Shown in pieces: positions 4,198 to 20,050 of a stretch of DNA of 24,000 nt (position 1 is its first letter; each line of letters opens with the position of its first letter). Below the pieces are notes generated by a model. It did no database searches, was not told the origin of the DNA, and saw nothing but the letters and a program-made list of their open reading frames with translations. Origin of the DNA: Candidatus Hadarchaeota archaeon (lineage in GTDB: Archaea > Hadarchaeota > Hadarchaeia > Hadarchaeales > Hadarchaeaceae); NCBI GenBank assembly GCA_040755315.1, contig JBFMBF010000015.1, positions 6,819-30,818 of the forward strand, given 5' to 3'. The position numbers and the translations under genes were made by a program.

Positions 4198-4788
4198 ATG
4201 TATGAAAAACTAAACATCACCGAAAACCACCTGCAAGTGCTTTCCCTGTTCACGAACGGGTTTGATAAAGAGTATTACATAAGGGAGGTGGAAAAATTGC
4301 TTAAAATCAGCCCTAGAACTGCTCAGTTAATTCTTGAAAATCTGGAAAACAAGGGGATTGTTGAATCAAAAATGAGAGGTAAAATAAAATCATACGCGTT
4401 GAAAAGGAGTATTTCAAGCCAGATGTACGTGGCATTCGCAGAGCAGTACAAAACAATCGCATTCCTTGAGAAAACCCCCATGATAAAAGAGATAATCGAA
4501 AAAATAATCCCTGCCGTCGATGGGGTGGGCGTTATTTTCGGGAGTTATGCAAAGGGGATTGCACGCGAGGAATCTGATTTGGATATTTTTGTTGTTGGGA
4601 AATATGACAACAAAGTTATAAAAAAGGTCTCTAAAACCTATGGAATCGAAATAGGTGTGAAATGTTATCCAGCAAAAGTGTTTGAGAAAAACCTCCACAG
4701 CGATATCTTGTTAAAGGAGATGCTGAAAAACCATCTTTTATTTTTGAACCTAGGTTTGTTTGTGCGGATGGTGATGAAAAACGGATAA
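4198..4788 (+). CDS. wHTH-fused minimal nucleotidyltransferase (MNT-type antitoxin-like)
   Basis: N-terminal winged-helix-like region (REVEKLLKISPRTAQLILENLENKGIVE) and the NTase signature GVIFGSYAKGIAREESDLDIFVVG (GS-x9/10-D-x-D). AT-rich compared with flanking genes. TATA-like TTAAATAG lies about 27 nt upstream, so the transcript is probably leaderless. Confidence 0.85.
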   Translation: MYEKLNITENHLQVLSLFTNGFDKEYYIREVEKLLKISPRTAQLILENLENKGIVESKMRGKIKSYALKRSISSQMYVAFAEQYKTIAFLEKTPMIKEIIEKIIPAVDGVGVIFGSYAKGIAREESDLDIFVVGKYDNKVIKKVSKTYGIEIGVKCYPAKVFEKNLHSDILLKEMLKNHLLFLNLGLFVRMVMKNG

Positions 4789-4825
4789 GATAAAATGGTG
4801 TGCTGGAAGAAAAGGTGGCCTTAGA

Positions 4826-5254
4826 TTGATTGAGCCAAATGCCAATCTTGCGAATGCGTATATCAAAAAAGCCGAAGAGGCATTGGAATCAATGCGGGTG
4901 AATGTAATAAAGGACTGGAAAATTTCAACAGCGTATTATACGCTTTATTTCTCACTTTACGCTCTGTTGATGAAAATCGGAGTAAAATGCGAAATTCACT
5001 CGTGCACGATCGAATTTGCTAGGCGGTTTTTGAACGAATATTTCAACGAAGAAGAGCTCGAATTCACCAAAGATTCGCTCAGGGCAAGGATCGATTCTCA
5101 GTATTATGTGGACAGGACTGTTCCAGACGCACAATACGATGAAATTGTTAAGAATGCCCCTGAATTTTTGGTAAAATGCAAATCAATACTCTCTAAACTA
5201 AACGAAAAGAAAATAAATGAGATAAGAAAAAAGTTCGAGAAAAGTATTGGGTAG
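4826..5254 (+). CDS. HEPN-domain protein, partner of the upstream MNT
   Basis: Classical HEPN (PF05168-like) layout: AYIKKAEEALESM ... STAYYTLYFSLYALLMKIGV ... HSCTIEFARRF ... LRARIDSQYY ... APEFLVKCKSIL. It lies immediately downstream of the NTase gene. TTG start. Confidence 0.75.
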   Translation: MIEPNANLANAYIKKAEEALESMRVNVIKDWKISTAYYTLYFSLYALLMKIGVKCEIHSCTIEFARRFLNEYFNEEELEFTKDSLRARIDSQYYVDRTVPDAQYDEIVKNAPEFLVKCKSILSKLNEKKINEIRKKFEKSIG

Positions 5255-5317: not shown

Positions 5318-5800
5318 TTATACTACTCCAAGGGCTTTCAGCTTTTTAAACAACTCTTCCTCAATAGCCTTAATTACCACAACTACTCCTCTGTTCATAT
5401 CCCCGCCGATTTGAACGCGCCCAGTCTGAATCCCTACCAGCAACACCTTGGCTCCAGTCTTCATCTTGAGGTAGCCAGAAAGAACTGAAATAGGCAGAGT
5501 ATGTGTTGAAATCTTCTCGCCGGCAATGTCCGCCGGACTCGCCACAACGACCTCGCCGGCCTTCCCGCCGAAGTCGGCCCCGTCCACGAAGACGACGTGG
5601 GTGGGGGTGAAACTCTCGATCTCCGAGATGAATCTCTCAGGAGCCATCCCCACCTCCAGAATAAGTAGCCGGGGAGAGCTGATTTTCTCCTTGAGCTTCC
5701 GCACGACCAGCAGGCCAGCGGCGTCGTCCCCCCTCATGTCATTGCCCACACCCACCACAACCACCCGCTCTGCGCCTTCGAGGACGGACAGGTCAATCAT
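5318..5800 (-). CDS. hycI: [NiFe]-hydrogenase maturation endopeptidase (HycI/HybD/FrhD family)
   Basis: VVVGVGNDMRGDDAAGLLVVRKL N-terminal signature and a later HTLP block. 160 aa. The start overlaps the hypB stop (ATGATTGA). Confidence 0.9.
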   Translation of the reverse strand: MIDLSVLEGAERVVVVGVGNDMRGDDAAGLLVVRKLKEKISSPRLLILEVGMAPERFISEIESFTPTHVVFVDGADFGGKAGEVVVASPADIAGEKISTHTLPISVLSGYLKMKTGAKVLLVGIQTGRVQIGGDMNRGVVVVIKAIEEELFKKLKALGVV

Positions 5801-6548
5801 GGCTGCCGCCCCTGAGCGAGCGATTCAAAATTTTTTCTAGGTGGCTTGAGAAGTCGGTCTTGAGAAGCTTCTCAGAATTTCCAATGGAGTCCTCAAGCAT
5901 CCGGTCAAAATCAATGCTTCCCAGAAAAGGCATGCCAAGTTTCTCAGCCTGTTTCTTTATGAATGCTGAACCGTCCCTCCTCATGTTCTCCACTACGCCG
6001 AGAACCGGAACCTTCAGCTCCTTCAGGAAATACAGCAGCTTGCGGACGGTCTCCCACGCCATCTTCGACTGGCTGGTGACGACGAGGAACTCCGCCCTCT
6101 TCATCACCCTGAGCAGGTCAAGGACCTCGTCCCCCGTCCCCGGCGGCATGTCGACAATGAGAAAATCCAGCGGGCCCCACCGCGTGATGGCCAGCATCTC
6201 TAGCATGGCGTTTGAAACTTCCGCGCCCCTGAGTGGTGACGGCCTGTCGCCCGTGTAGTAGACCAACGACATCAGCCTGACGCCGTGCACAAGCGGCGGC
6301 ACCACGCCCTTTTCCTCTTTTGGTGAAGCCTTCCCCGCGCCTAAAACGACGTGCGCGGAAGGGCCGTGAAAATCCAAGTCAAACAGCCCCACCCTGTAAC
6401 CGAGCTTGGACAGCGCCAGCGCGGAAGCGGCAGAAATAACGCTTTTCCCGACGCCTCCCTTCCCGCTGACTACCGCGATCAGCCTCCCGGCCTCCGCCAG
6501 CCTTTTCTCAGCCGTCTCAAGCCTCGGGTCACCTCTCCATCTCGACAT
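5793..6548 (-). CDS. hypB: Mrp/MinD-family ATPase-type HypB (nickel-insertion partner of HypA)
   Basis: Deviant Walker A VSGKGGVGKS and Mrp/MinD blocks (DLDFHGPS, DFLIVDMPPGTGD, GVVENM). No Cys anywhere, so it lacks the Fe-S-carrier CxxC of Nbp35/ApbC. It sits between hypA and the endopeptidase, as the ATPase-type HypB does in Thermococcales. Confidence 0.85.
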   Translation of the reverse strand: MSRWRGDPRLETAEKRLAEAGRLIAVVSGKGGVGKSVISAASALALSKLGYRVGLFDLDFHGPSAHVVLGAGKASPKEEKGVVPPLVHGVRLMSLVYYTGDRPSPLRGAEVSNAMLEMLAITRWGPLDFLIVDMPPGTGDEVLDLLRVMKRAEFLVVTSQSKMAWETVRKLLYFLKELKVPVLGVVENMRRDGSAFIKKQAEKLGMPFLGSIDFDRMLEDSIGNSEKLLKTDFSSHLEKILNRSLRGGSHD

Positions 6549-6930
6549 GCTCCAACAGCACCCCCCGTCCCCCCTTCAACTGGAAATCCGGGCTGCCACA
6601 TTTCGGGCACCTGAGGTAAACGTGCGCCACCTCCGGGATGAAGTGTACCGACTCTGCCTCGCCCGGCCTGAGGCCCCCGCGCCTGAAGCCCCACTCCGCG
6701 CGGCAGACGTTACACTCGAAAACAGATTTCTCCGGCTCCAGCGCCACATTCAGGTTCTCGGCCTTCGTGCCCCTGGCGAGCTGCCTGACCGCGAACTTGA
6801 AGACCTTCTTGTCAAGCTGCTGCAGCTCCCCCACCCTCACCCTTATGCCCAGCACCCGCCCGGCCTTCCTCTCGTCCGCGGCCTTCAGGGCGGCCGAAAC
6901 CACCCCCTCAGCCAGAGCCCATTCGTGCAA
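6529..6930 (-). CDS. hypA: Hydrogenase nickel-incorporation protein HypA
   Basis: N-terminal MHEWALAEGV nickel-site motif and a zinc site CNVC ... CPKCG. 133 aa. Overlaps hypB by 20 nt. Confidence 0.95.
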   Translation of the reverse strand: MHEWALAEGVVSAALKAADERKAGRVLGIRVRVGELQQLDKKVFKFAVRQLARGTKAENLNVALEPEKSVFECNVCRAEWGFRRGGLRPGEAESVHFIPEVAHVYLRCPKCGSPDFQLKGGRGVLLEHVEMER

Positions 6931-7780: not shown

Positions 7781-10108
7781 TCAGCCTTTCAGCCTGCTGG
7801 CGGCGACGAAAGCCTGGCCGACTGATATCCCGCCATCGCCCGGCGGGACCAGCCTGTGGCTTTTGAACTCAAGACCCTCTTTGACCACGGCGTCCCTCAC
7901 GCACGAGGTTATAGCGTCGTTGTAAAACACCCCGCCGGAAGCGCCGATGGTTTTTATCCCGCGCGCCCTTGCGGCCTCGACTGCCATCGCCGCCAATGCT
8001 CTTGCCACCGCGCGCTGGGCCCCGGCCGCGATGTCTTTTCTAGGGAGCCTCTTCCGCACGGCGCCGAGCACATCAACCAGAAGCTGGGAGCTGTCCGCAA
8101 CCAGCAGCCCGGATTCATTTTTGACATCCATCTCCAGCCCAGCTCTTTCGGGATCGCCGGCAGCCGCGGCAGCTTCGAGCTTCATCGCGGGCTCGCCCTC
8201 GTAGGTCCTCTCGCGGCAAATCCCCAATAGGCAGGAGACCGCGTCAAGGATCCGGCCGCAGCTTGAAGTCTGGAAGACATTCAATCCCCTCTCCAGCTGG
8301 CGCATGACCAGCTCGACCTCCCTAGCCCCATTCGGAAAACCTTGGATGCAGAACTCTTCGAGTGCCCGCTTCACCTCTTCGCGGGACATTGCCTGCGAAA
8401 GAATTCCGGCCACCGTCCTCGCGGGAAACTGCGTCGCGAGGTCCCCGCCTGGCATGGGCTGCTTCTTGAGCCCGCCGACGCGCTCGAAGTCTCCCGGCGT
8501 GGCCACCATCACCTCCCCTCCCCAGACTGACCCATCCTGCCCGAAACCAACACCATCCGCGGCTATCCCGACCAGCTCTTCCACCCCGGTCTCCGCCATG
8601 AGAGAAGCCAGGTGGGCATGGTGGTGCTGGACCTTCACGAGCTCGGCGCCAAACTTCCCGGCCATGGCCTCGGCCTCCGCAGTAGTGTTGTAAAGAGGGT
8701 GAAGGTCGCAGGCGACGGCATCCACGCCGTCAATGTTCAGGAGACCCATCAGGCGCCCGGCCCCCTCCCTGAGATATTCAAGTGTCTCAATCTTCGTGAC
8801 ATCGCCTATGTGCTGGCTGGGGAAGCAAAGGCTCCCCTTCAGAACAGAAACCGTGACGCAGAGCTCGGCTCCCAGCGCCAGCACCCTAGCGTTGCCGTCA
8901 AAATTCAGCTTCACGGGAGTTGGGACATGCCCCCGCGACCTCCTTATGAAGACGGGGGTTCCGGCCGTGAACCTCACCACGGAGTCGTCGCACCTGTTGA
9001 CTATTTTTCTGTCGTGCAAAAGGAGGTAATCCACTCGCCCTCCCAGCAACCCGAAAGCCTCCCGGTTGTCGACAGCCATGGGCATTCCCGGCATGTTCGC
9101 GCTCGTCATGACGTAGGCCAGCTCCTTCCCATGGTGGAGGATGAGGTGCTGTATCCCGGAGTACGGCAGCATCACCCCGACGGAGTAAAGCCCGGGCGCC
9201 ACCAGCTCCGACAGCGGGGAATCATCCCGGCGCTTCAGGACAACGATTGGGCGCTGGGGAGATGTCAGAATTTTCTCCTCTTCTCGGCCCATCTCGGCGA
9301 ATTTTTTTACAGCGTCTTGATCCTTCGACATCAAGGCGAAAGGCTGCTGTGGCCTTCCGAACAACCTGCGGAGGCGCGCCAAGACATCGTCCGAGGTCGT
9401 CTTGGCCGCCACGTGGGTTCCACCGATGCCTTTGATTGCCAAAATGGCCCCATCGTCCAGGAGCCTCGCCGCCTCTCGCGTGGCGTCCCGCACCTCCAGC
9501 TTCTCTCCATCCTGCCGGTAGAGCTCCAGCGCCGGCCCGCATTTTGAACAGCAGGTCGGCTCGGCATGGTACCTCCTGTCGGCCGGATCCCTGTATTCGC
9601 CGGAGCAGTCGGCGCAGAGCGGGAAATCAGCCATCGAGGTCCTCGGCCTGTCGTAGGGCAGGCTCTCGATGATCGTGAACCTAGGCCCGCAGTTGACGCA
9701 GGTTATGAAGGCGTAGCCGTGCCTGCGGTCCTTCTGATCCATCATCTCGCGCAGGCAATCGTCGCACGTGGCCATGTCCGAAGGGACTATCGATGGAAGG
9801 CCCGCGCCCGCCTTCTCGCTCTCCGCAACGTTGAAACTTTCAAAATCGCCTCTGGGAGGAAGCCACTTGACCAGAACATCCTCGACCCTGGCCATGGGCG
9901 GCTGCTCCGACCTCAGGAGTGATGCGAACTTCTCTATCGTGCCCCTGCTGCCCTCCACGACGATCTGGACGCCGGCATCGCCCATGTTGCGAACGAACCC
10001 CATGAGCCCCAAACGAGTCGCGAGCCTGCGGCAGAACGGCCTGAACCCCACCCCCTGCACGAGACCAGTGCTCCATATCTCCGCGCGCGCCTTGGACTTG
10101 TTTTCCAT
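7781..10108 (-). CDS. hypF: Carbamoyltransferase HypF
   Basis: Acylphosphatase domain (VQGVGFRPFCRRLA), two CxxC-x18-CxxC zinc fingers (CDDC...CVNCGPR, CADC...CSKCGP), and YrdC-like and Kae1-like domains. I prefer the ATG at 10108 (MENKSKARAEI) because a TATA-like TTAAAATTTTT sits about 27 nt upstream. The tracked start at 10171 lies upstream of that box. Confidence 0.96.
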   Translation of the reverse strand: MENKSKARAEIWSTGLVQGVGFRPFCRRLATRLGLMGFVRNMGDAGVQIVVEGSRGTIEKFASLLRSEQPPMARVEDVLVKWLPPRGDFESFNVAESEKAGAGLPSIVPSDMATCDDCLREMMDQKDRRHGYAFITCVNCGPRFTIIESLPYDRPRTSMADFPLCADCSGEYRDPADRRYHAEPTCCSKCGPALELYRQDGEKLEVRDATREAARLLDDGAILAIKGIGGTHVAAKTTSDDVLARLRRLFGRPQQPFALMSKDQDAVKKFAEMGREEEKILTSPQRPIVVLKRRDDSPLSELVAPGLYSVGVMLPYSGIQHLILHHGKELAYVMTSANMPGMPMAVDNREAFGLLGGRVDYLLLHDRKIVNRCDDSVVRFTAGTPVFIRRSRGHVPTPVKLNFDGNARVLALGAELCVTVSVLKGSLCFPSQHIGDVTKIETLEYLREGAGRLMGLLNIDGVDAVACDLHPLYNTTAEAEAMAGKFGAELVKVQHHHAHLASLMAETGVEELVGIAADGVGFGQDGSVWGGEVMVATPGDFERVGGLKKQPMPGGDLATQFPARTVAGILSQAMSREEVKRALEEFCIQGFPNGAREVELVMRQLERGLNVFQTSSCGRILDAVSCLLGICRERTYEGEPAMKLEAAAAAGDPERAGLEMDVKNESGLLVADSSQLLVDVLGAVRKRLPRKDIAAGAQRAVARALAAMAVEAARARGIKTIGASGGVFYNDAITSCVRDAVVKEGLEFKSHRLVPPGDGGISVGQAFVAASRLKG

Positions 10109-10134
10109 TCCTTGGAGAATGGTTGGCCAGCCGC

Positions 10135-10145
10135 TTAAAATTTTT
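10135..10145 (-). promoter_or_regulatory. Putative archaeal TATA box for hypF (leaderless transcript)
   Basis: The minus-strand AAAAATTTTAA is centred about 27-30 nt upstream of the ATG at 10108. Confidence 0.4.
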
Positions 10146-10246
10146 GTGTAAACCAGGGCGCTACAAAACAAGAAAAAGTGGCCGCCTAAACAATGTTACA
10201 AATGCAGCTACAAAAACCATTATTACAATCGCGGCTGTTGTTGTGA

Positions 10247-11587
10247 CTAGGGCCGCGCCCGGGGAACCTTGAGTGTATGTCTGCTGACTACTACGACTAT
10301 CGCTATAACCAGCGCGATTATCGAGACGCCCACCACCCACAATGGCGGAATCCCCGCCGTTGGCGTGGTTGGAAACGTTGCTGGACTCGTGGCCTGTGAA
10401 CCAGTTACCGCGAACACCGAGAAGCTCGGAGTTTCTGCAGAGACGTACAGGTAGCTCTCGTCCTCTCCAGTTATCGTGGTGGGCAGCTCGGTCCATACGC
10501 CGTTCACACAATGCTGCAACGTTATGGAATTATCATCCAAGTTGTTTGCAGCAATCCAATCTTGGTCTACTTTTATTCCTATTTCAGCAGTTTCTATCAA
10601 TTCCGGAATGTTTGTGCCAACTTGGAAGAGCTCTTGGAAATTCTCCGCTGGTGGCGGCACATTCTCTGGCAGGTCATCCGGACTCAAATGCAAAGCCGTT
10701 ATGACGACATCGGACACGTTCTCGCTCACATCAATCTTAATCCCGCCCACTGACACGTTTTCAGCAGGTCTTTCGGCGGGAATCCAAGGCCCGTTGTCGG
10801 CGGAGCGCATGAAAGGTGTTGAACCTTCAGGTATGTCGAAACCGACCGGGGCATCCGTGGTGACGTTGTCTCTCTCCCAAGTCCAGCACGGCTTGTTTTC
10901 CGGCGGTACCCAGTGGTTCTCCTCGGGATTCAACCGCGGGGATACAGAAGTCGAAAGCATGTTTTCCGACGGGGACGATGACGACATCCAACGCTCTGAT
11001 GGCATCCAATCTGAGCGCGGCGTCCAGTTTTCGGGCCTCTTCCAGCTACTCTCAGGCATATATGGTGGCACGATGTCCGTGAGGAGATTTTCCGGTACGT
11101 CCCAAGTTGTAGGAGGGGTCCAGTCCGAAGGGGGCCTCATCCCGCCTGGCCACCAGTTTTCTGGAGGCTCCCAAGCCGTGGGCCACCAGTCATGGACCGT
11201 GGTCCAGTGAACATACATCGCGTATGGATCATTCTCCGTGGCAGCGCTGGTAACTTGCACCCCGCAGAACGGGCAGTATGTTTTGCTCAGCGGCGGCGAG
11301 ATTGACGCGTAGGTCGTTCGTATGTAATTGGCAACTTCTGATATCGTGGAAAACTCCACTCCGTCTATCAAACTGTAAACAGGGCCCGGGTGTTCATTGA
11401 GGTACACGCTAAAGTGGTTTTCATACTGGTGCGCCGTCACTTCCGCAAAGCTGGAAAAATTCTCGTGGCAGATTGGGCACGCGTTTGGAGGAGGACCCGG
11501 TGGCTGTTGCGGAGGCGCTGCCACCGGCGAAACAAATGCAAAAATCACAAATGCCGATATAAGCAGGACGATTGAAACACATTTCAT
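10247..11587 (-). CDS. Secreted, membrane-anchored surface protein: signal peptide, two C2H2-like motifs, Trp-rich P(x)EN repeat region, PGF-pre-PGF-like domain, Thr/Pro linker, C-terminal TM anchor
   Basis: SD GGAGG precedes the ATG. N-terminal hydrophobic signal MKCVSIVLLISAFVIFAFVSPVAA. Motifs CPICHENFSSFAEVTAHQYENH and CPFCG-x18-HWTTVH. 15 Trp in aa 128-240. The block IETAEIGIKVDQDWIAANNLDDNSITLQHCVNGVWTELPTTITGEDESYLYVSAETPSFSVFAVTG matches the PGF-pre-PGF domain pattern. C-terminal IPPLWVVGVSIIALVIAIVVVVSRH. Confidence 0.8.
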   Translation of the reverse strand: MKCVSIVLLISAFVIFAFVSPVAAPPQQPPGPPPNACPICHENFSSFAEVTAHQYENHFSVYLNEHPGPVYSLIDGVEFSTISEVANYIRTTYASISPPLSKTYCPFCGVQVTSAATENDPYAMYVHWTTVHDWWPTAWEPPENWWPGGMRPPSDWTPPTTWDVPENLLTDIVPPYMPESSWKRPENWTPRSDWMPSERWMSSSSPSENMLSTSVSPRLNPEENHWVPPENKPCWTWERDNVTTDAPVGFDIPEGSTPFMRSADNGPWIPAERPAENVSVGGIKIDVSENVSDVVITALHLSPDDLPENVPPPAENFQELFQVGTNIPELIETAEIGIKVDQDWIAANNLDDNSITLQHCVNGVWTELPTTITGEDESYLYVSAETPSFSVFAVTGSQATSPATFPTTPTAGIPPLWVVGVSIIALVIAIVVVVSRHTLKVPRARP

Positions 11588-14212: not shown

Positions 14213-14632
14213 TCAGATTTCCTCGCGCCTCACGATGCTTGGGACCCAATCAAACCCTCTATCAAAAGATATCAAATCCTTGATTCCCCGGCTTTGCATC
14301 AGCGCTACGGTGGTTGAATCAACAAAGCTGAGGTTCGGGTATTTTTTAAAAATCTCGCCCGCAATCTTCAGCTCGATGTCATTTACTCTTACGAGTTCCA
14401 GGTGGGGGGATGAAAGCATGGCCTCGTATACCTTGTTTGACGCCTCGACTCCTCCCCTCCCACTGAACCTAATCAGGGTTAAAGTCTCGGCCATCACATA
14501 ATCCGTGAAGACGCATCTGCCCAGCTTTCCAACGCCCATTGTAGCCAAGATTTTTGAGGCATCTCTGTGCCTAGCGTCACGCTTGAGGGCCGCCGCCGCC
14601 AACACGACTGAGTCTATCGCGAACAAGCCCAT
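14213..14632 (-). CDS. vapC: PIN-domain toxin VapC
   Basis: Acidic PIN residues lie in FAIDSVVL, VMAETL, SFVDSTTVA and SFDRGFD. The ATG overlaps the vapB stop by 1 nt (TGATG). Confidence 0.85.
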   Translation of the reverse strand: MGLFAIDSVVLAAAALKRDARHRDASKILATMGVGKLGRCVFTDYVMAETLTLIRFSGRGGVEASNKVYEAMLSSPHLELVRVNDIELKIAGEIFKKYPNLSFVDSTTVALMQSRGIKDLISFDRGFDWVPSIVRREEI

Positions 14633-14877
14633 CAGCGCCCGTACAAAATTTTGTTGTGATTTTTGGTCACGTCAGAAGGGTCAGCTTCGACTAATCCAAC
14701 CATCTGGAGAAGCGGGTCTTTTTTTATTTTTTTTCTTCTGGGTTTGACAACTATCTCAGCCGCCATGGGGAGCCACTCAAGCTCGTCGCCGACTTCGAGG
14801 CCAAACATCCTCCTGACATCAGACGGGACCGAAGTCAGATACTTTTTCGATACTTTTGTTGTAGCCACGCGCCACAC
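14632..14877 (-). CDS. vapB: AbrB/SpoVT-type antitoxin VapB
   Basis: TKVSKKYLTSVPSDVRRMFGLEVGDELEW is a SpoVT-AbrB swapped-hairpin motif. GTG start (14877, or 14868). TATA-like TTTAAAAAC at 14900-14909 suggests a leaderless transcript. Confidence 0.8.
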   Translation of the reverse strand: MWRVATTKVSKKYLTSVPSDVRRMFGLEVGDELEWLPMAAEIVVKPRRKKIKKDPLLQMVGLVEADPSDVTKNHNKILYGR

Positions 14878-15184: not shown

Positions 15185-15970
15185 TCAGGCAATGAATTTT
15201 TTGAGCTTTTCTGCCAGCTCCGTTGGCAGCGGCATGGCCTCCATGATCGTCGTGTCCGTGCACACCGAGACCGTCAGGCAGTCGGCGGCGGTCTTCCCAG
15301 ACGTGAGATTCTTCACAACGTTCCTCCACTTGATGTGCTTCCGACCGACCTCCTCCACCCACACCACCACCTCAATCTCGTTGTCCAGCCTGACCGGCGC
15401 CAGTATCTTCCCGCTCGTCTCCACGGTCGGGACGAAAATTCCGAGCTTGTGAATCAGCGTGGCGTAGCTGAACCCCAGACTCTCGAGTAGCTCCTGCTGC
15501 GCCCGCTCGCAGAATCTGAAGTAGTTGGTGTAGTGCAAGACCTGGAGATAATCGGTGTCGGAGAGAGATATCTTGTACCTGCTCCGGAAAGCATTTGCCG
15601 GGATTTGAATCTCCTTCGCGCCTTCTGACATTTTTTCCGTCACCTCCGGTTCAACATCAACTATTGACCCCTTAATCCCGAGGGAGCCAAGCAATTTATC
15701 TGTTTCATCCGCGGCCTTCTCCCTCGCCTCGCCCTCCTCGAGCCCGTCGCCGAGCAGCTCCTGCACCCTGATGTCCCTGTAGAGCGCCACGTTCCTGATG
15801 AAGTCCTCCTGGCTGAGCCTGCCGATTGCTATCCCCGCGTGGACCATGACGAGGTCTCCCGGCGAGAGCCTTTCCACGGCCACCATGACATCTTTCCTGA
15901 CGCCGCCGAAGTCGACGGTTGCGGTAGGCCCCTCGATCCCGATGACCTTGGCGGGAACTCCCCAGCACAC
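15185..15970 (-). CDS. hypC: HypC (Fe-scaffold chaperone) fused in frame to a 4HBT/YbgC-class hotdog thioesterase domain
   Basis: aa 1-72, MCWGVPAKVIGIEGPTATVDFGGVRKDVMVAVERLSPGDLVMVHAGIAIGRL..., is canonical HypC. aa ~126-261 align colinearly with YbgC/4HBT thioesterases, including the catalytic-Asp block SLSDTDYLQVLHYTNYF. The GTG start is 1 nt after the hypD stop. An internal SD (GGAGGTGA) lies 8 nt before the ATG at 15631. Confidence 0.85.
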   Translation of the reverse strand: MCWGVPAKVIGIEGPTATVDFGGVRKDVMVAVERLSPGDLVMVHAGIAIGRLSQEDFIRNVALYRDIRVQELLGDGLEEGEAREKAADETDKLLGSLGIKGSIVDVEPEVTEKMSEGAKEIQIPANAFRSRYKISLSDTDYLQVLHYTNYFRFCERAQQELLESLGFSYATLIHKLGIFVPTVETSGKILAPVRLDNEIEVVVWVEEVGRKHIKWRNVVKNLTSGKTAADCLTVSVCTDTTIMEAMPLPTELAEKLKKFIA

Positions 15971-15971
15971 T

Positions 15972-17195
15972 TCAATCGCCCTCCAGCTTCGCGGCCCCGC
16001 CGTGCCTGGCCCAGACGGAGCAGACCCCCTCCGAAGAAACCATGCACGGTCCCCATGGGCTGGCCGGTGAGCATCCCTTCATGAAGAGGGGACAATCGGT
16101 CGGCTTCGCTATGCCCACGACGACCTCGCTGCACCTGCACTTCGGAGGAAGGTCGTGCTCCCAGGGCACTCCGTGATGGGCGTGGGTGTAGATGAATTCT
16201 TCCGGCGCCAGATCCGGAATCCCGTGGTGCCTGAAGGCGTCGTGCCCCTGAAATTTTTCCCTGAGCTTCAGGCCGCTCCCGGGGATGAAGCCTATCCCCC
16301 TCCATGCAGCGTTTGTCTTCTCGAAAACCTCGTCAATCATCTTCTTCGCGTACTCGTTCCCTCCCCACCCCACCATCCGATTGTACTCGACCTTGATTTC
16401 CGGCCTGTCATCCTTCATCATTAGCAGAATCTGGGCCACTGCCATCAGAACGTCAATCGGCTCGAAGCCGGCGACTACCGTGGGCAGGCCGTAAAGCTTG
16501 GGCAGGAACTCCCACTCGGCCGCCCCGATAATCGTCGAGACGTGGCCCGGGGCTATCACCCCGCTTATGGGCAGCAGCCCCCTCTCCCGGTGGAGCTTGA
16601 TCGTGTACTTCATCGCAGCTGGCGTGAGCCTGAGCGCGCTCAGGAACTTCAGGTTGTCTGGCACCATCCCCTCCTTCATGGCGATCGCGTAACTCGGCGC
16701 GGTCGTCTCAAAACCTATCCCGAAAAACACCCCATCCTTCCCGGAGGCGCGAGAGTCCTTCACCGCGTCGAGGAAGCTGTACACCACCTTCACGTCCCCG
16801 CCTTCCGCCCTGGCCTCCTCAAGGCTGGCGGGATGGTCAGCCTTCGCGCTCCTGAGCCTCAACGAGTCGCCGTAGGTGTAGACCTTGGCGCCGCCCTGCG
16901 CGAGCTTCACGGCCACATCGACATAGTATGAAGGAACGACGCAGACGGGGCAGCCGGGCCCGGCCACCAGCTCAATGAACGGCGGTAGCAGCTCCCTCAG
17001 GCTGTACTGGGTGGCCGTCCACTCGTGGGTGCCGCAGAAGTTCATTATCTTGATGAGCTCGCAATTTTCCTTCTCCCTAACGGCCTCGGCATACTTCCCG
17101 ATGACCCTCTTGAGCTCTAGTGCGAGAGGGAGGTTTTCCCTGAATGTTCTTTTAAGGACCTCGATGTCTCCGGACTTTTCCATGGCCTGCACCAT
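15972..17195 (-). CDS. hypD: Hydrogenase maturation protein HypD
   Basis: IMNFCGTHEW (CGxHxH-type motif), GPGCPVCVVP and the C-terminal PWGPCMVSSEGVCSVW cluster. I prefer the ATG at 17195 or 17183. The tracked 17363 start would add about 56 non-homologous residues. Confidence 0.95.
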   Translation of the reverse strand: MVQAMEKSGDIEVLKRTFRENLPLALELKRVIGKYAEAVREKENCELIKIMNFCGTHEWTATQYSLRELLPPFIELVAGPGCPVCVVPSYYVDVAVKLAQGGAKVYTYGDSLRLRSAKADHPASLEEARAEGGDVKVVYSFLDAVKDSRASGKDGVFFGIGFETTAPSYAIAMKEGMVPDNLKFLSALRLTPAAMKYTIKLHRERGLLPISGVIAPGHVSTIIGAAEWEFLPKLYGLPTVVAGFEPIDVLMAVAQILLMMKDDRPEIKVEYNRMVGWGGNEYAKKMIDEVFEKTNAAWRGIGFIPGSGLKLREKFQGHDAFRHHGIPDLAPEEFIYTHAHHGVPWEHDLPPKCRCSEVVVGIAKPTDCPLFMKGCSPASPWGPCMVSSEGVCSVWARHGGAAKLEGD

Positions 17196-17560
17196 TTTAC
17201 ATTTACCCTGAAGATTTAACCACGCAATTCCCGGCTTCTGAAGTTTCTTGACCAGCTCGTTCCTAGTTGGCGGGATTCCTTTTGTTTCAAGTGAGTTACT
17301 CAAGCGCGCGCAGCGGCTTGAGCACCCACGCTTTGGCCGGTGTTCCCTCGACCACGGCTTCAACTGCCCTGTGCCGTCCGCTGCCAGCCACGATGCGTTC
17401 TCTCTTGACCTTTTTGGACCTTACACCAGTTGGTCTATTTTTCATTTTCCTCGCCGAAGCTTTTGGCGAAGGTTGCTTAAAAATGAGAAAAAACCGTGCG
17501 CGTACAGTGCCAAGACCGCTAACTAAATACATGTGCGCCGCCCGTGTTTTGAGTGATTCG

Positions 17561-18577
17561 ATGCCAAAAAACAAAATCACGCTGGAGCACGGCGCCGGCG
17601 GGACGGCCATGATGAAACTCATCTCGGAAATAGTGCTGAAGGAGTTCACAAACAGAAAAAGGGGACCAGTTGGGCTGGACGAGCTCGACGACGGGGCGGC
17701 GATAACAATTGGCGACAAGACTCTGGTCTTCACGACTGACGCCCACACCGTAAAGCCTCTATTCTTCCCTGGCGGGGACATGGGGCGGCTGGCGGTCTCT
17801 GGCACCGTGAACGACCTCGCCGTGATGGGGGGGCGCCCGCTCGCGATGGCCTGCGCCGTCGTGGTGGAGGAGGGCTTCCCCATCGATGACTTCCGCCGGA
17901 TTTGCAGGTCCATGGATTCGGCGGCGAAAGAAGTTGACGTGGCGATTGTGACGGGCGACCTCAAGGTCATGGAGAAAGGCGCAATCGACGGCATCGTGAT
18001 AACCACGACTGGGGCTGGCCTGGCAGACTCGCTCAAAACTGACTACCTACTCAAGCCAGGGCACAAAATCATCGTCACTGGAACAATAGGCGACCACGGC
18101 GCCACCATCCTCGCCAGCCGGGAGGGGATAGACATCGGCGGGGAACTCAGCTCCGATGTGGCCCCGCTCTGGGAAACTGTGGAGGCTGCGATGAAAGCTG
18201 GAGAGGTATCGTCCATGAAAGACCCCACGAGAGGAGGGGTGGCGGGAGCTCTGAACGAGTTTGCATCCAAATCCAAGGTCGGCATCCTGCTTGAAGAGAA
18301 AAAAATACCGATATCTGGGCCGGTGGGGAGCCTGTGTGAGATGCTCGGGCTCGACCCCCTGACCCTTACAAACGAGGGAAAGATTCTGATGGGGGTGGCG
18401 CAGGAGGACTCCGAAGCTGTTCTTCATGCCATCCGGAAGACGAAGTACGGCAAAAACGCCGAGATAGTAGGGGAGGCTACTTCTGAGAGGCCCGGAAAAG
18501 TTATTCTGAGGACCTCCGTCGGTGGTGGTCGGATTTTGCCTGCCCCCCTGGGAGACCCAGTTCCCAGGATATGTTGA
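17561..18577 (+). CDS. hypE: Hydrogenase maturation protein HypE
   Basis: N-terminus MPKNKITLEHGAGGTAMMKLI, PurM/AIR-synthase-like fold blocks, and a C-terminal PRIC cyanation motif. 338 aa from the ATG at 17561. The tracked 17267 start adds a non-homologous extension. Confidence 0.95.
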   Translation: MPKNKITLEHGAGGTAMMKLISEIVLKEFTNRKRGPVGLDELDDGAAITIGDKTLVFTTDAHTVKPLFFPGGDMGRLAVSGTVNDLAVMGGRPLAMACAVVVEEGFPIDDFRRICRSMDSAAKEVDVAIVTGDLKVMEKGAIDGIVITTTGAGLADSLKTDYLLKPGHKIIVTGTIGDHGATILASREGIDIGGELSSDVAPLWETVEAAMKAGEVSSMKDPTRGGVAGALNEFASKSKVGILLEEKKIPISGPVGSLCEMLGLDPLTLTNEGKILMGVAQEDSEAVLHAIRKTKYGKNAEIVGEATSERPGKVILRTSVGGGRILPAPLGDPVPRIC

Positions 18578-19002: not shown

Positions 19003-19486
19003 TTAGGCGAAATCGGCCAGCGTCACCTGCTTCGCGTCCGACTTTCTTTTCGGTTTTCCCTGATTTCTCACGTACTCGTCGATTTCCTCCGACGTCCTGT
19101 CTCCCATGCTATCAAAGTAGTACGCCGGACTCCAGAGCCCGCTGCCCCAGAAGTACTTGCTCTTGAAGTACGGGAACTCGCGCAGCAGCGCGTGGCCGGA
19201 GTTCCCCTTCAGGGCCTTTGCCATGCTCGCCGGGGAGTGGTTCGGCCCGGAGTCGACCGTGAGGTGTACGTGGTCGCGGTCGAACCCGATTTCGCGGATT
19301 TCCATGCCGTACCTCTGCGCGGTCTCGTGCAGAATCTCACCACACCGGCCCTTCACTCGCTCGTCGTCGAAGACCGGATGGCAGTACTTGGTCTTGGCAG
19401 TACTTGGTCCTGAAGCACACGTGCATCACGTTCTTACCGACGCTCGAGCTGTAGTGCTTTATAGAGCTCCCGCTAATCTGATCCAT
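19003..19486 (-). pseudogene. tnpA: IS200-family Y1 transposase TnpA, frameshifted by a 16-nt tandem duplication
   Basis: SD GGAGGT precedes the ATG at 19486. The N-terminal piece MDQISGSSIKHYSSSVGKNVMHVCFRTKYC then shifts frame. The C-terminal piece (tracked ORF 19003-19356) carries the HUH motif DHVHLTV and the catalytic Tyr in IDEYVRNQG. Deleting one 16-nt copy joins them as ...HVCFRTKYCHPVFDDERVKGRCGEIL... Confidence 0.85.
19379..19410. repeat. 16-nt tandem duplication inside tnpA
   Basis: TGGCAGTACTTGGTC occurs at 19379-19393 and again at 19395-19409 (period 16, one junction mismatch). The two tnpA halves are offset by 130 nt, and 130-16=114 is divisible by 3. Confidence 0.9.
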
Positions 19487-19645: not shown

Positions 19646-20050
19646 GTGACGCAAAAACTCGCGCGCGTAAGCTTGACGCTTCCAACGGAGCTGTTGACTG
19701 AGCTCGACGGCGCCATTCAGTCCCAGCGTTACGCAAGCCGCTCTGAGGCCATCAGGGACTCCATCCAAGATTTCTTGGCCGACTACCGGTGGCGGAAAGG
19801 GCTTGCAGGCAAGCTTCTCGGGGCCATCCTGGTGCTCTACGACCACGAAGTCAGGGGGCTGGGTGACAAGCTGATAGACATCCAGCACGCAAGCGCCGAC
19901 GTTATAAAATCTGTGCAACACCTTCACGTTGACGAAAAAAACTGCCTGGAAGTTTTGATTTGCGAGGGTCGGGCGAAAAAAGTACGTGAACTTGTTGAGC
20001 GGATGAGTACACTTCGAGGCGTGAAACAGGCAAAATTGGTGGTTGTCTAG
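19646..20050 (+). CDS. nikR: Nickel-responsive regulator NikR
   Basis: N-terminal ribbon-helix-helix RVSLTLPTELLTELDGAIQSQRYASRSEAIRDSI. C-terminal Ni-binding domain with the YDHE, HLHVD and CLEVL blocks. GTG start. Confidence 0.9.
   Translation: MTQKLARVSLTLPTELLTELDGAIQSQRYASRSEAIRDSIQDFLADYRWRKGLAGKLLGAILVLYDHEVRGLGDKLIDIQHASADVIKSVQHLHVDEKNCLEVLICEGRAKKVRELVERMSTLRGVKQAKLVVV

Follow-up and report, generated by a model that had tools for sequence, protein, structure and literature searches.

Why does a hypC gene read without a stop into a complete thioesterase, and does the resulting protein act in the maturation of [NiFe] hydrogenases? The question is raised by a 24,000-nucleotide stretch of DNA from a Candidatus Hadarchaeota archaeon (positions 6,819 to 30,818 of contig JBFMBF010000015.1, assembly GCA_040755315.1; hereafter the window), in which the open reading frame (ORF) directly behind hypD encodes a HypC domain joined to a hotdog domain of the YbgC/4HBT type. 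The Fe(CN)2CO group of [NiFe] hydrogenase is assembled on an iron that is bound by the N-terminal cysteine of HypC and by HypD. The analysis reported here suggests, with a probability of roughly 0.85-0.9, that the fusion is a functional HypC-thioesterase acting in [NiFe] maturation.

The fusion gene runs as one uninterrupted ORF across 15185..15970 of the minus strand. In agreement with a preliminary description made from the sequence of the window, it starts a single nucleotide after hypD, the TGA stop of which (15972-15974) is followed by one base (15971), the GTG start (15968-15970) and a TGC codon (Cys2), so that the product begins Met-Cys and the cysteine becomes residue 1 (Cys1) once the methionine is removed. 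The two domains proposed in that description were likewise recovered by Pfam, the N-terminal one as HupF_HypC (residues 1-62, E 3.6e-18, 65.9 bits with the gathering score at 28.5) and the C-terminal one as 4HBT_2 (residues 136-256, E 7.8e-10, 39.7 against a cut-off of 25.5) and 4HBT (residues 143-225, E 1.1e-9, 38.9 against 20.6), and the codon of the catalytic Asp140 lies where it had been placed. The parts of the gene are as follows.

15185..15970, minus strand: whole hypC-thioesterase fusion ORF, 261 amino acids, stop codon at 15185-15187 (ORF list; Pfam HupF_HypC and 4HBT_2/4HBT)
15815..15970, minus strand: HypC domain with an oligonucleotide/oligosaccharide-binding (OB) fold, residues 1-52, with the GTG start, Cys2 at 15965-15967 and His44 at 15839-15841 (match to Thermococcus kodakarensis HypC, 2Z1C; five strands in the AlphaFold2 model)
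15683..15814, minus strand: two-helix extension of the HypC part, residues 53-96, helices at 54-74 and 79-96 (AlphaFold2)
15602..15682, minus strand: variable flexible linker, residues 97-123 (low identity, low predicted local distance difference test (pLDDT) score, length variation in the family)
15188..15601, minus strand: YbgC/4HBT-type hotdog domain, residues 124-261, with the Asp140 codon at 15551-15553 and that of the invariant Cys154 at 15509-15511
15629..15647, minus strand: possible internal start, made up of GGAGGTGA at 15640-15647, an 8-nucleotide spacer and the ATG of Met114 at 15629-15631

A search of about 5.8 billion proteins yielded 58 relatives, 56 of them full-length (216-282 amino acids), carrying both Pfam domains and 42-100% identical to the fusion; one of them, NCBI MEW6222515.1 from a Candidatus Hadarchaeota metagenome-assembled genome (MAG), is 100% identical to the window protein. 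NCBI and JGI label the fusion proteins just as "HypC family" or "acyl-CoA thioester hydrolase". When one genome per GTDB species was scanned, the fusion was found in 24 species, all of them MAGs, labelled as Hadarchaeota/Hadesarchaea, Geoarchaeota, Nitrososphaeria/Nitrososphaerota, Desulfurococcales/Desulfurococcaceae, Sulfolobales or Thermoproteota. The fusion is therefore conserved in two archaeal phyla, Hadarchaeota and Thermoproteota. In the 25 genomic copies (the window and 24 loci, L001-L024) a single frame stays open throughout, starting at the Cys codon and reaching the hotdog motif, and because it recurs in every one of them an artefact confined to one genome is excluded; an assembly error or a lost stop codon was ruled out by these copies together with the 56 protein clusters. 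ATG or GTG directly precedes the Cys codon in the window and in 23 of the 24 loci. The other locus, L017, has ACG at this place (~9998-10000), which may mean that the start is non-canonical, that there is an error of sequencing or that translation starts further upstream. The preliminary description had made its proposal depend on three points, and on each of them the outcome favoured the fusion: neither stop nor frameshift separates the domains, the C-terminal part matches hotdog profiles, and the architecture recurs in relatives with linkage to hyp genes.

Residue invariance and mean pairwise identity were computed over the 25 genomic copies, and an AlphaFold2 model (mean pLDDT 85.6) was derived from the family alignment. 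Mean identity was 53% in the OB domain (residues 1-52), 40% in the two helices, 22% in the linker (here taken as about 97-127) and 61% in the hotdog domain (128-259), so that conservation is highest in the hotdog. As judged from these alignments, the fusion is under strong purifying selection. The invariant residues of the HypC part include M1, C2, G4, G22, G23, H44, A45 and G46, to which the helical extension adds N60, G76 and A82; in the model the OB part forms five beta strands (within residues 5-52, pLDDT about 90), followed by a helix from residue 54. This part matched T. kodakarensis HypC (2Z1C, residues 1-61) with an E value of 5.7e-12 and about 50% identity over 60 residues. The preliminary description had seen an acidic linker between the two domains; only about residues 97-123 of this region are variable, and residues 53-96 form a conserved and confidently predicted helical hairpin that belongs with the HypC part. 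The linker proper is unstructured in the model (pLDDT below 50 at residues 110-118) and differs in length between family members. In a short-linker fusion of 216 amino acids encoded on a Logan contig (P0049), the acidic linker and the greater part of the second helix are missing, and the HypC part nearly abuts the hotdog domain.

In the hotdog domain, for which the model gives a helix at 150-164 and strands within 128-236, the invariant positions include D140, Y141, L142, Q143, V144, H146, Y147, N149, Y150, C154, E155, H174, P181, T182, E184, R194, D196, N197, W204, C237 and D239. Its sequence matched 5V10 (E 3.3e-14), which Foldseek also matched in the PDB (E 1.9e-11); the YbgC chains 5v10, 1s5u and 5t06 gave template modelling (TM) scores of 0.84-0.90 on the target, and with the further match to 4K00, a 1,4-dihydroxy-2-naphthoyl-CoA (DHNA-CoA) thioesterase, the scores on the target ranged over 0.8-0.9. 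Asp140, which in the D-x-D motif we take to correspond to Asp18 of Escherichia coli YbgC, is invariant in all 25 fusions, as is the aligned Asp in 125 of 125 stand-alone relatives, and the Y/H-x-N-Y-F start of the active-site helix is the norm of the family among those same relatives. In contrast, the loop that follows the Asp is an invariant Y141-L142-Q143 in the fusions and A-A-G in most of the relatives (Gly in 96/125). With the catalytic Asp and the helix motif kept and the loop altered, the hotdog domain looks catalytically competent but specialised.

The genomic setting of the fusion agrees with a role beside HypD. In the window and in loci L001-L014, hypD lies immediately upstream of the fusion on the same strand. 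Three Nitrososphaeria genomes show the order two hdrA-like genes, mvhD, a small subunit gene, the [NiFe] large subunit gene, hycI, hypD, fusion, hypE and hypF, and there the fusion stands where a hydrogenase operon canonically has hypC. In the window it is the only HypC-like gene and stands in the hypC slot of the hypD-hypC operon. A family hidden Markov model, run over the six-frame ORFs of the window and of the 10 kb on either side of the fusion at each locus, detected no second HypC-like ORF. A radical-SAM gene near hypD in L007-L010 was considered as a maturation factor and rejected, being the tetraether lipid synthase Tes. The maturation genes of the window form a full set; its hyp and nickel-related genes are these.

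5318-5800, minus strand: hycI-type maturation protease (Pfam HycI)
5793-6548, minus strand: Mrp/NBP35-type P-loop ATPase (Pfam ParA/NUBPL)
6529-6930, minus strand: hypA (NCBIfam HypA NF003008, 151 bits against a cut-off of 125)
7781..10171, minus strand: hypF (Pfam Acylphosphatase, zf-HYPF, Sua5_yciO_yrdC, HypF_C, HypF_C_2)
15972..17363 as listed, likely to about 17195, minus strand: hypD (Pfam HypD, E 3.5e-116; FCGTHEW and GPGCPVC motifs)
~17561..18577, plus strand: hypE, divergent from hypD (Pfam AIRS and AIRS_C; C-terminus ...PVPRIC)
19646..20050, plus strand: nikR-type nickel regulator (Pfam NikR_C and RHH_1)

The listed ORFs of hypD and hypE overlap head to head. That of hypD starts at a TTG (17363), the Pfam domain begins at residue 89, and the true start is likely ATG 17195 or 17183; that of hypE (17267-18577) starts at an upstream TTG, its profile match begins at residue 141, and the likely start is ATG 17561. 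With these starts a divergent intergenic region of about 370 base pairs is left between the two genes. No classical HypB GTPase was found among the annotated ORFs of the window. Instead, the Mrp/NBP35-type ATPase gene sits between hycI and hypA and overlaps both, which resembles the Mrp/MinD-type HypB substitute reported in Thermococcales.

How might such a protein work? We propose that the HypC part would do what HypC ordinarily does alongside HypD, HypE and HypF. Dimers or tetramers are usual for hotdog domains of the YbgC class, and the fusion protein is probably oligomeric as well. The flexible tether could hold the thioesterase site within reach of Cys1, on the same or a neighbouring HypC of the HypCD scaffold, where the hotdog domain would act on a thioester, either an acyl-CoA or an S-acyl adduct on Cys1. 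Taken as a whole this mechanism is tentative, and we put it a little short of even odds. Within it we favour a guarding or editing role, in which the domain would hydrolyse S-acyl-Cys1, or acyl-CoA in the vicinity, before the N-terminus is blocked, because the N-terminus of HypC is chemically exposed to non-enzymatic acylation. A free N-terminal cysteine would react with acyl-CoA to an S-acyl thioester and from there irreversibly to the N-acyl form, by the chemistry of native chemical ligation, and N-acylation would destroy the iron-binding N-terminus of HypC. Acyl-CoA is known to N-acylate N-terminal-cysteine compounds non-enzymatically and irreversibly via the S-acyl thioester (PMC9586882). 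Native mass spectrometry of HypC and HybG from E. coli revealed Cys1-dependent adducts of +26/+28 Da, discussed as S- or N-acetyl- or formyl-derived and as possible precursors of CO (PMC10847431), and a 2025 review, which considers formyl-CoA, regards the anaerobic source of CO as the chief question still to be answered (PMC12134894). The idea of the preliminary description, that the domain takes part in the CO-ligand step or in proofreading, agrees with these published proposals (PMC10847431, PMC12134894).

The distribution of the hotdog domain bears on this proposal. An exhaustive HMMER search with the hotdog part alone against 1.84 billion cluster representatives gave 1720 hits, four of which reached E <=1e-30; all 4 are fusions, and the next hits are ordinary thioesterases of 135-155 amino acids with at most 40% identity. 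No other combination of HypC and hotdog was present among the 150 best hotdog representatives. Because the top hits are all fusions and no other such combination occurs among the best hits, we conclude that the hotdog domain was recruited once, and it now exists only in fused form. One apparent stand-alone copy, P0057, was rejected as such: it starts 22 nucleotides from where its contig ends, the frame stays open up to that point and hypE follows it, so that it is probably a truncated fusion. The nearest stand-alone relatives, P0059/P0205 (40% identity) and P0060, are not near hyp genes: their neighbours are either genes for lipoate ligase, a radical SAM protein, CMD and TenA or a PadR regulator; these unrelated neighbourhoods ruled out, for the closest relatives, a stand-alone hotdog within a hyp operon. 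The closest one, P0205 (L027 3784-4245), also carries the DTDYLRV, LIHEY and VCTD motifs, and its neighbourhood hints that the ancestral role of the domain had to do with medium-chain acyl groups or lipoate.

HypC proteins of a second kind, which we call long HypC (99-116 amino acids), follow hypD genes whose products closely resemble the HypD proteins linked to fusions, in Sulfolobales MAGs (L037/L038), in a Candidatus Hadarchaeum (L039) and in a further MAG (L040). Like the fusion they consist of the OB domain and two helices up to about SLGI, occupy the slot after hypD and are 34-57% identical to the first 123 residues of the window protein; unlike the fusion they end about 10-15 residues past the helices, with no hotdog domain.

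L037 7172-7504: long HypC, OB domain and two helices, no hotdog
L039 6184-6522: long HypC, OB domain and two helices, no hotdog
L040 1442-1792: long HypC, OB domain and two helices, no hotdog

Next to the L039 gene lies an operon for a [NiFe] hydrogenase that includes Fer4 and NAD-binding subunits, and no hotdog gene was found near the long HypC loci. Because long HypC without a hotdog also carries both helices, the helical extension belongs to a HypC subfamily. In a neighbour-joining tree of HypD, drawn without support values, the unfused lineages nest among the fused ones. The hotdog domain is accessory and patchily distributed, having been lost or never fixed in several lineages. Such a distribution fits a guarding role. 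The names of several MAGs hint at a hot-spring or deep-subsurface origin, which a guarding role would also fit.

Several observations weigh against the reading of the fusion as a HypC-thioesterase in [NiFe] maturation, or against parts of it. Both halves of the protein are divergent, since they score under the curated NCBIfam cut-offs (TIGR00074 for HypC, 42.5 against 48; TIGR00051 for the hotdog, 53.3 against 68.7; the tol-pal YbgC equivalog TIGR02799 is likewise below its cut-off, at 50.7 against 141). In loci L015-L024, which represent ten Sulfolobales/Desulfurococcaceae species, the fusion lies away from hyp genes and its role could differ there; Pro6 of the HypC motif is replaced in these proteins, and within about 1.5 kb of the fusion lie the genes of a 2-oxoacid:ferredoxin oxidoreductase with four subunits (alpha, beta, gamma and the ferredoxin delta). 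The HypC search covered the window and 10-kb flanks, and a canonical HypC may be encoded elsewhere in these genomes. The Y-L-Q loop and the further invariants specific to the fusion suggest a specialised substrate instead of generic acyl-CoA clearance. Close relatives in both phyla that have a long HypC without a hotdog beside hypD weaken the proposal of a CO-ligand or proofreading step, and the choice between guarding Cys1 and supplying it is one that we purely infer.

The neighbourhood of the fusion in the ten species is of interest in itself. A 2-oxoacid:ferredoxin oxidoreductase yields acyl-CoA, CO2 and reduced ferredoxin. Its genes are co-directional with the fusion in L015 and L024 and divergent from it in the other loci of this set, and the adjacency may be either functional or merely inherited synteny. 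The neighbours further include thioredoxin-like and membrane proteins. An example of the whole arrangement is L021 (4480-9864, with the fusion at about 10001-10777). An unannotated neighbour of 379 amino acids was considered as a divergent HypD and rejected, with an hhalign probability of 0.3%; its N-terminus is thioredoxin-like, and it belongs to the membrane proteins. One of the ten genomes carries an orphan hypD on the same contig as the fusion, about 115 kb away and with no canonical hypC beside it. Orphan hypD genes followed directly by a gene for an FmdA_AmdA (formamidase/acetamidase-like) protein of 301 amino acids were also observed in Sulfolobales MAGs (L032 10001-12292, L033, L035/L036 6001-8283); these cases include the genome with the fusion 115 kb away and share long-range synteny, so they are not independent.

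Among the rival explanations, the one that survives best, although we regard it as rather unlikely, assigns the hotdog domain the opposite direction: it would bind formyl- or acetyl-CoA and load Cys1, or decarbonylate beside the iron, thus supplying CO under anoxia. Transfer might proceed through an anhydride of Asp140 or by direct attack of the thiol, and the domain would match HypX in function without being its homologue. A source of anaerobic CO is still being sought, with formyl-CoA as an explicit candidate (PMC12134894), and Cys1 adducts of the formyl or acetyl type have been proposed as CO precursors (PMC10847431). A fold that binds CoA thioesters, with its catalytic Asp intact, is tethered here to the very protein that bears the cysteine; the bulky Y141, L142 and Q143 could shrink the acyl pocket to C1/C2 substrates, and ten species have the fusion beside an enzyme that produces acyl-CoA. 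Nevertheless, the Y-L-Q loop and the oxidoreductase neighbourhood, though compatible with such a supply, do not count as evidence in its favour. Related lineages whose HypD is very similar carry a long HypC and lack the domain altogether, so that a supplying step is not universally required in fused form. Neither a split stand-alone copy of the hotdog nor a gene for generating formyl-CoA linked to the fusion was found, and we know of no YbgC-type hotdog enzyme that works as a decarbonylase or protein acyltransferase. It is doubtful, too, that the tethered hotdog is the anoxic supplier of the CO ligand in a wider sense, with the fusion as a 'Rosetta stone' for a step done elsewhere by an unlinked enzyme.

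Alternatively, the hotdog domain could be structural, gathering two to four HypC or HypCD units or docking on HypD or the large subunit, with its catalysis irrelevant. YbgC-class hotdog proteins are obligate oligomers. The closest PDB matches contain 2 to 12 chains of the matching sequence across entries, the tether is flexible, and hypD and hypC can persist where the domain is lost, all of which would suit a scaffold. A purely structural role is nonetheless unlikely because the active site is invariant, the catalytic Asp and the whole motif of the active-site helix being the same across two phyla and the hotdog being the best conserved part of the protein.

The last alternative concerns the possible internal start. 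The preliminary description had noted a Shine-Dalgarno-like GGAGGTGA followed by 8 nucleotides and an ATG in the linker, which is indeed present, and had suggested that a free thioesterase of 148 amino acids might be made from it. Met114 and a GAGG at -15 are kept in the window and in its five nearest relatives, L001-L005 (69-88% identity, Hadarchaeota); the Nitrososphaeria, Geoarchaeota and L015-L024 sequences, in contrast, have no Met at position 114. The window contains three GGAGGTGA sites against 0.9 expected by chance, the other two lying inside the glutamyl-tRNA synthetase (GluRS) gene and hypF. A separate thioesterase is thus possible in the Hadarchaeota clade and is not a trait of the family, so that the suggestion is weakly supported. 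The least probable rival, that a metabolic thioesterase was joined to hypC by loss of a stop, is perhaps made separately from Met114 and has no part in maturation, can draw on the strength of this site, on its being shared by the six nearest Hadarchaeota in an otherwise variable linker and on the stand-alone relatives in non-hyp contexts, but it is unlikely that an unrelated enzyme was fused by chance, because the fusion persists across phyla and genomic contexts (in Hadarchaeota, Nitrososphaeria, Geoarchaeota, Desulfurococcales and Sulfolobales, down to 42% identity, and even where the gene has moved from hypD), most members have no internal Met, and the hotdog subfamily occurs only in fusions, P0057 at its contig edge being the sole apparent exception.

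The hyp genes have further neighbours in the window. A pair encoding a MazE-like antitoxin and a PIN toxin (14213-14877, minus strand) lies directly downstream of the fusion, and a nucleotidyltransferase and HEPN pair (4198-5254, plus strand) is among the small genes of mobile or defence type around the hyp genes. An N-terminally short ORF of an IS200-like Y1 transposase (19003-19356, minus strand) adjoins hypE. Between hypF and an HxlR regulator, an ORF of 446 amino acids (10247-11587, minus strand) has no Pfam match and carries the PGF-pre-PGF domain (NCBIfam TIGR04213), which we take to be an archaeal surface-protein sorting signal.

The reading of the fusion as a HypC-thioesterase in [NiFe] maturation places a CoA-thioester enzyme, tethered to the cysteine-bearing chaperone, at the step where the CO ligand's source is still debated. 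The fusion would be independent genomic evidence for thioester chemistry at HypC, no matter if the domain's task is to load the cysteine, to edit it or to protect it. Supply of the ligand would be the more consequential direction if true; if the domain is a guard only, it would reveal a previously unconsidered weakness of metallochaperones with an N-terminal cysteine. The protein also offers a compact test system, with one polypeptide, one catalytic Asp and the long HypC proteins as natural domain-less controls.

How does the fusion compare with known systems? A literature search found no paper linking HypC with a hotdog, 4HBT, YbgC or acyl-CoA thioesterase domain, in agreement with the preliminary description, which knew of no hotdog thioesterase in the Hyp pathway, and within the searched literature HypC-hotdog is a conserved, previously undescribed domain architecture. 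Like HypC, HybG and HupF (PF01455; 2Z1C, 3VYR-3VYU), the fusion begins Met-Cys, has the OB fold with the VDFGGV and VHxGxAI motifs and is encoded after hypD; unlike canonical HypC, a single domain of 75-110 amino acids, it has 261 amino acids, a second helix, a complete enzyme domain and Trp3 in place of the usual Leu or Ile. With the YbgC/4HBT class I enzymes (PF03061, PF13279; E. coli YbgC 1S5U/5T06, P. aeruginosa 5V10, Slr0204 4K00) it shares the fold, a colinear sequence, the Asp of D-T-D and the H/Y-x-N-Y helix start, at 17-26% identity to the closest solved structures in fold alignments. It differs from them in lacking an association with tol-pal, in its fusion to HypC and in the Y-L-Q for the A-A-G loop; Cys154, His174, Thr182 and Asn197 are likewise specific to the fusions. 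HypX is a patchy accessory maturation factor that uses formyl-CoA for the CO ligand (PMC12134894, PMC6802093). Its likeness to the fusion is a possible functional analogy only, since HypX, a separate protein made of a formyltransferase and a crotonase fold, is not homologous to the fusion, on which no Pfam or NCBIfam match to HypX-type domains was found. Finally, HupF of Rhizobium leguminosarum has a C-terminal extension that is protective during cofactor assembly (PMC12134894, PMC3534401); that extension is short, contains no enzyme domain and protects against O2 in aerobic bacteria, whereas the archaeal fusion carries an enzyme domain on its HypC.

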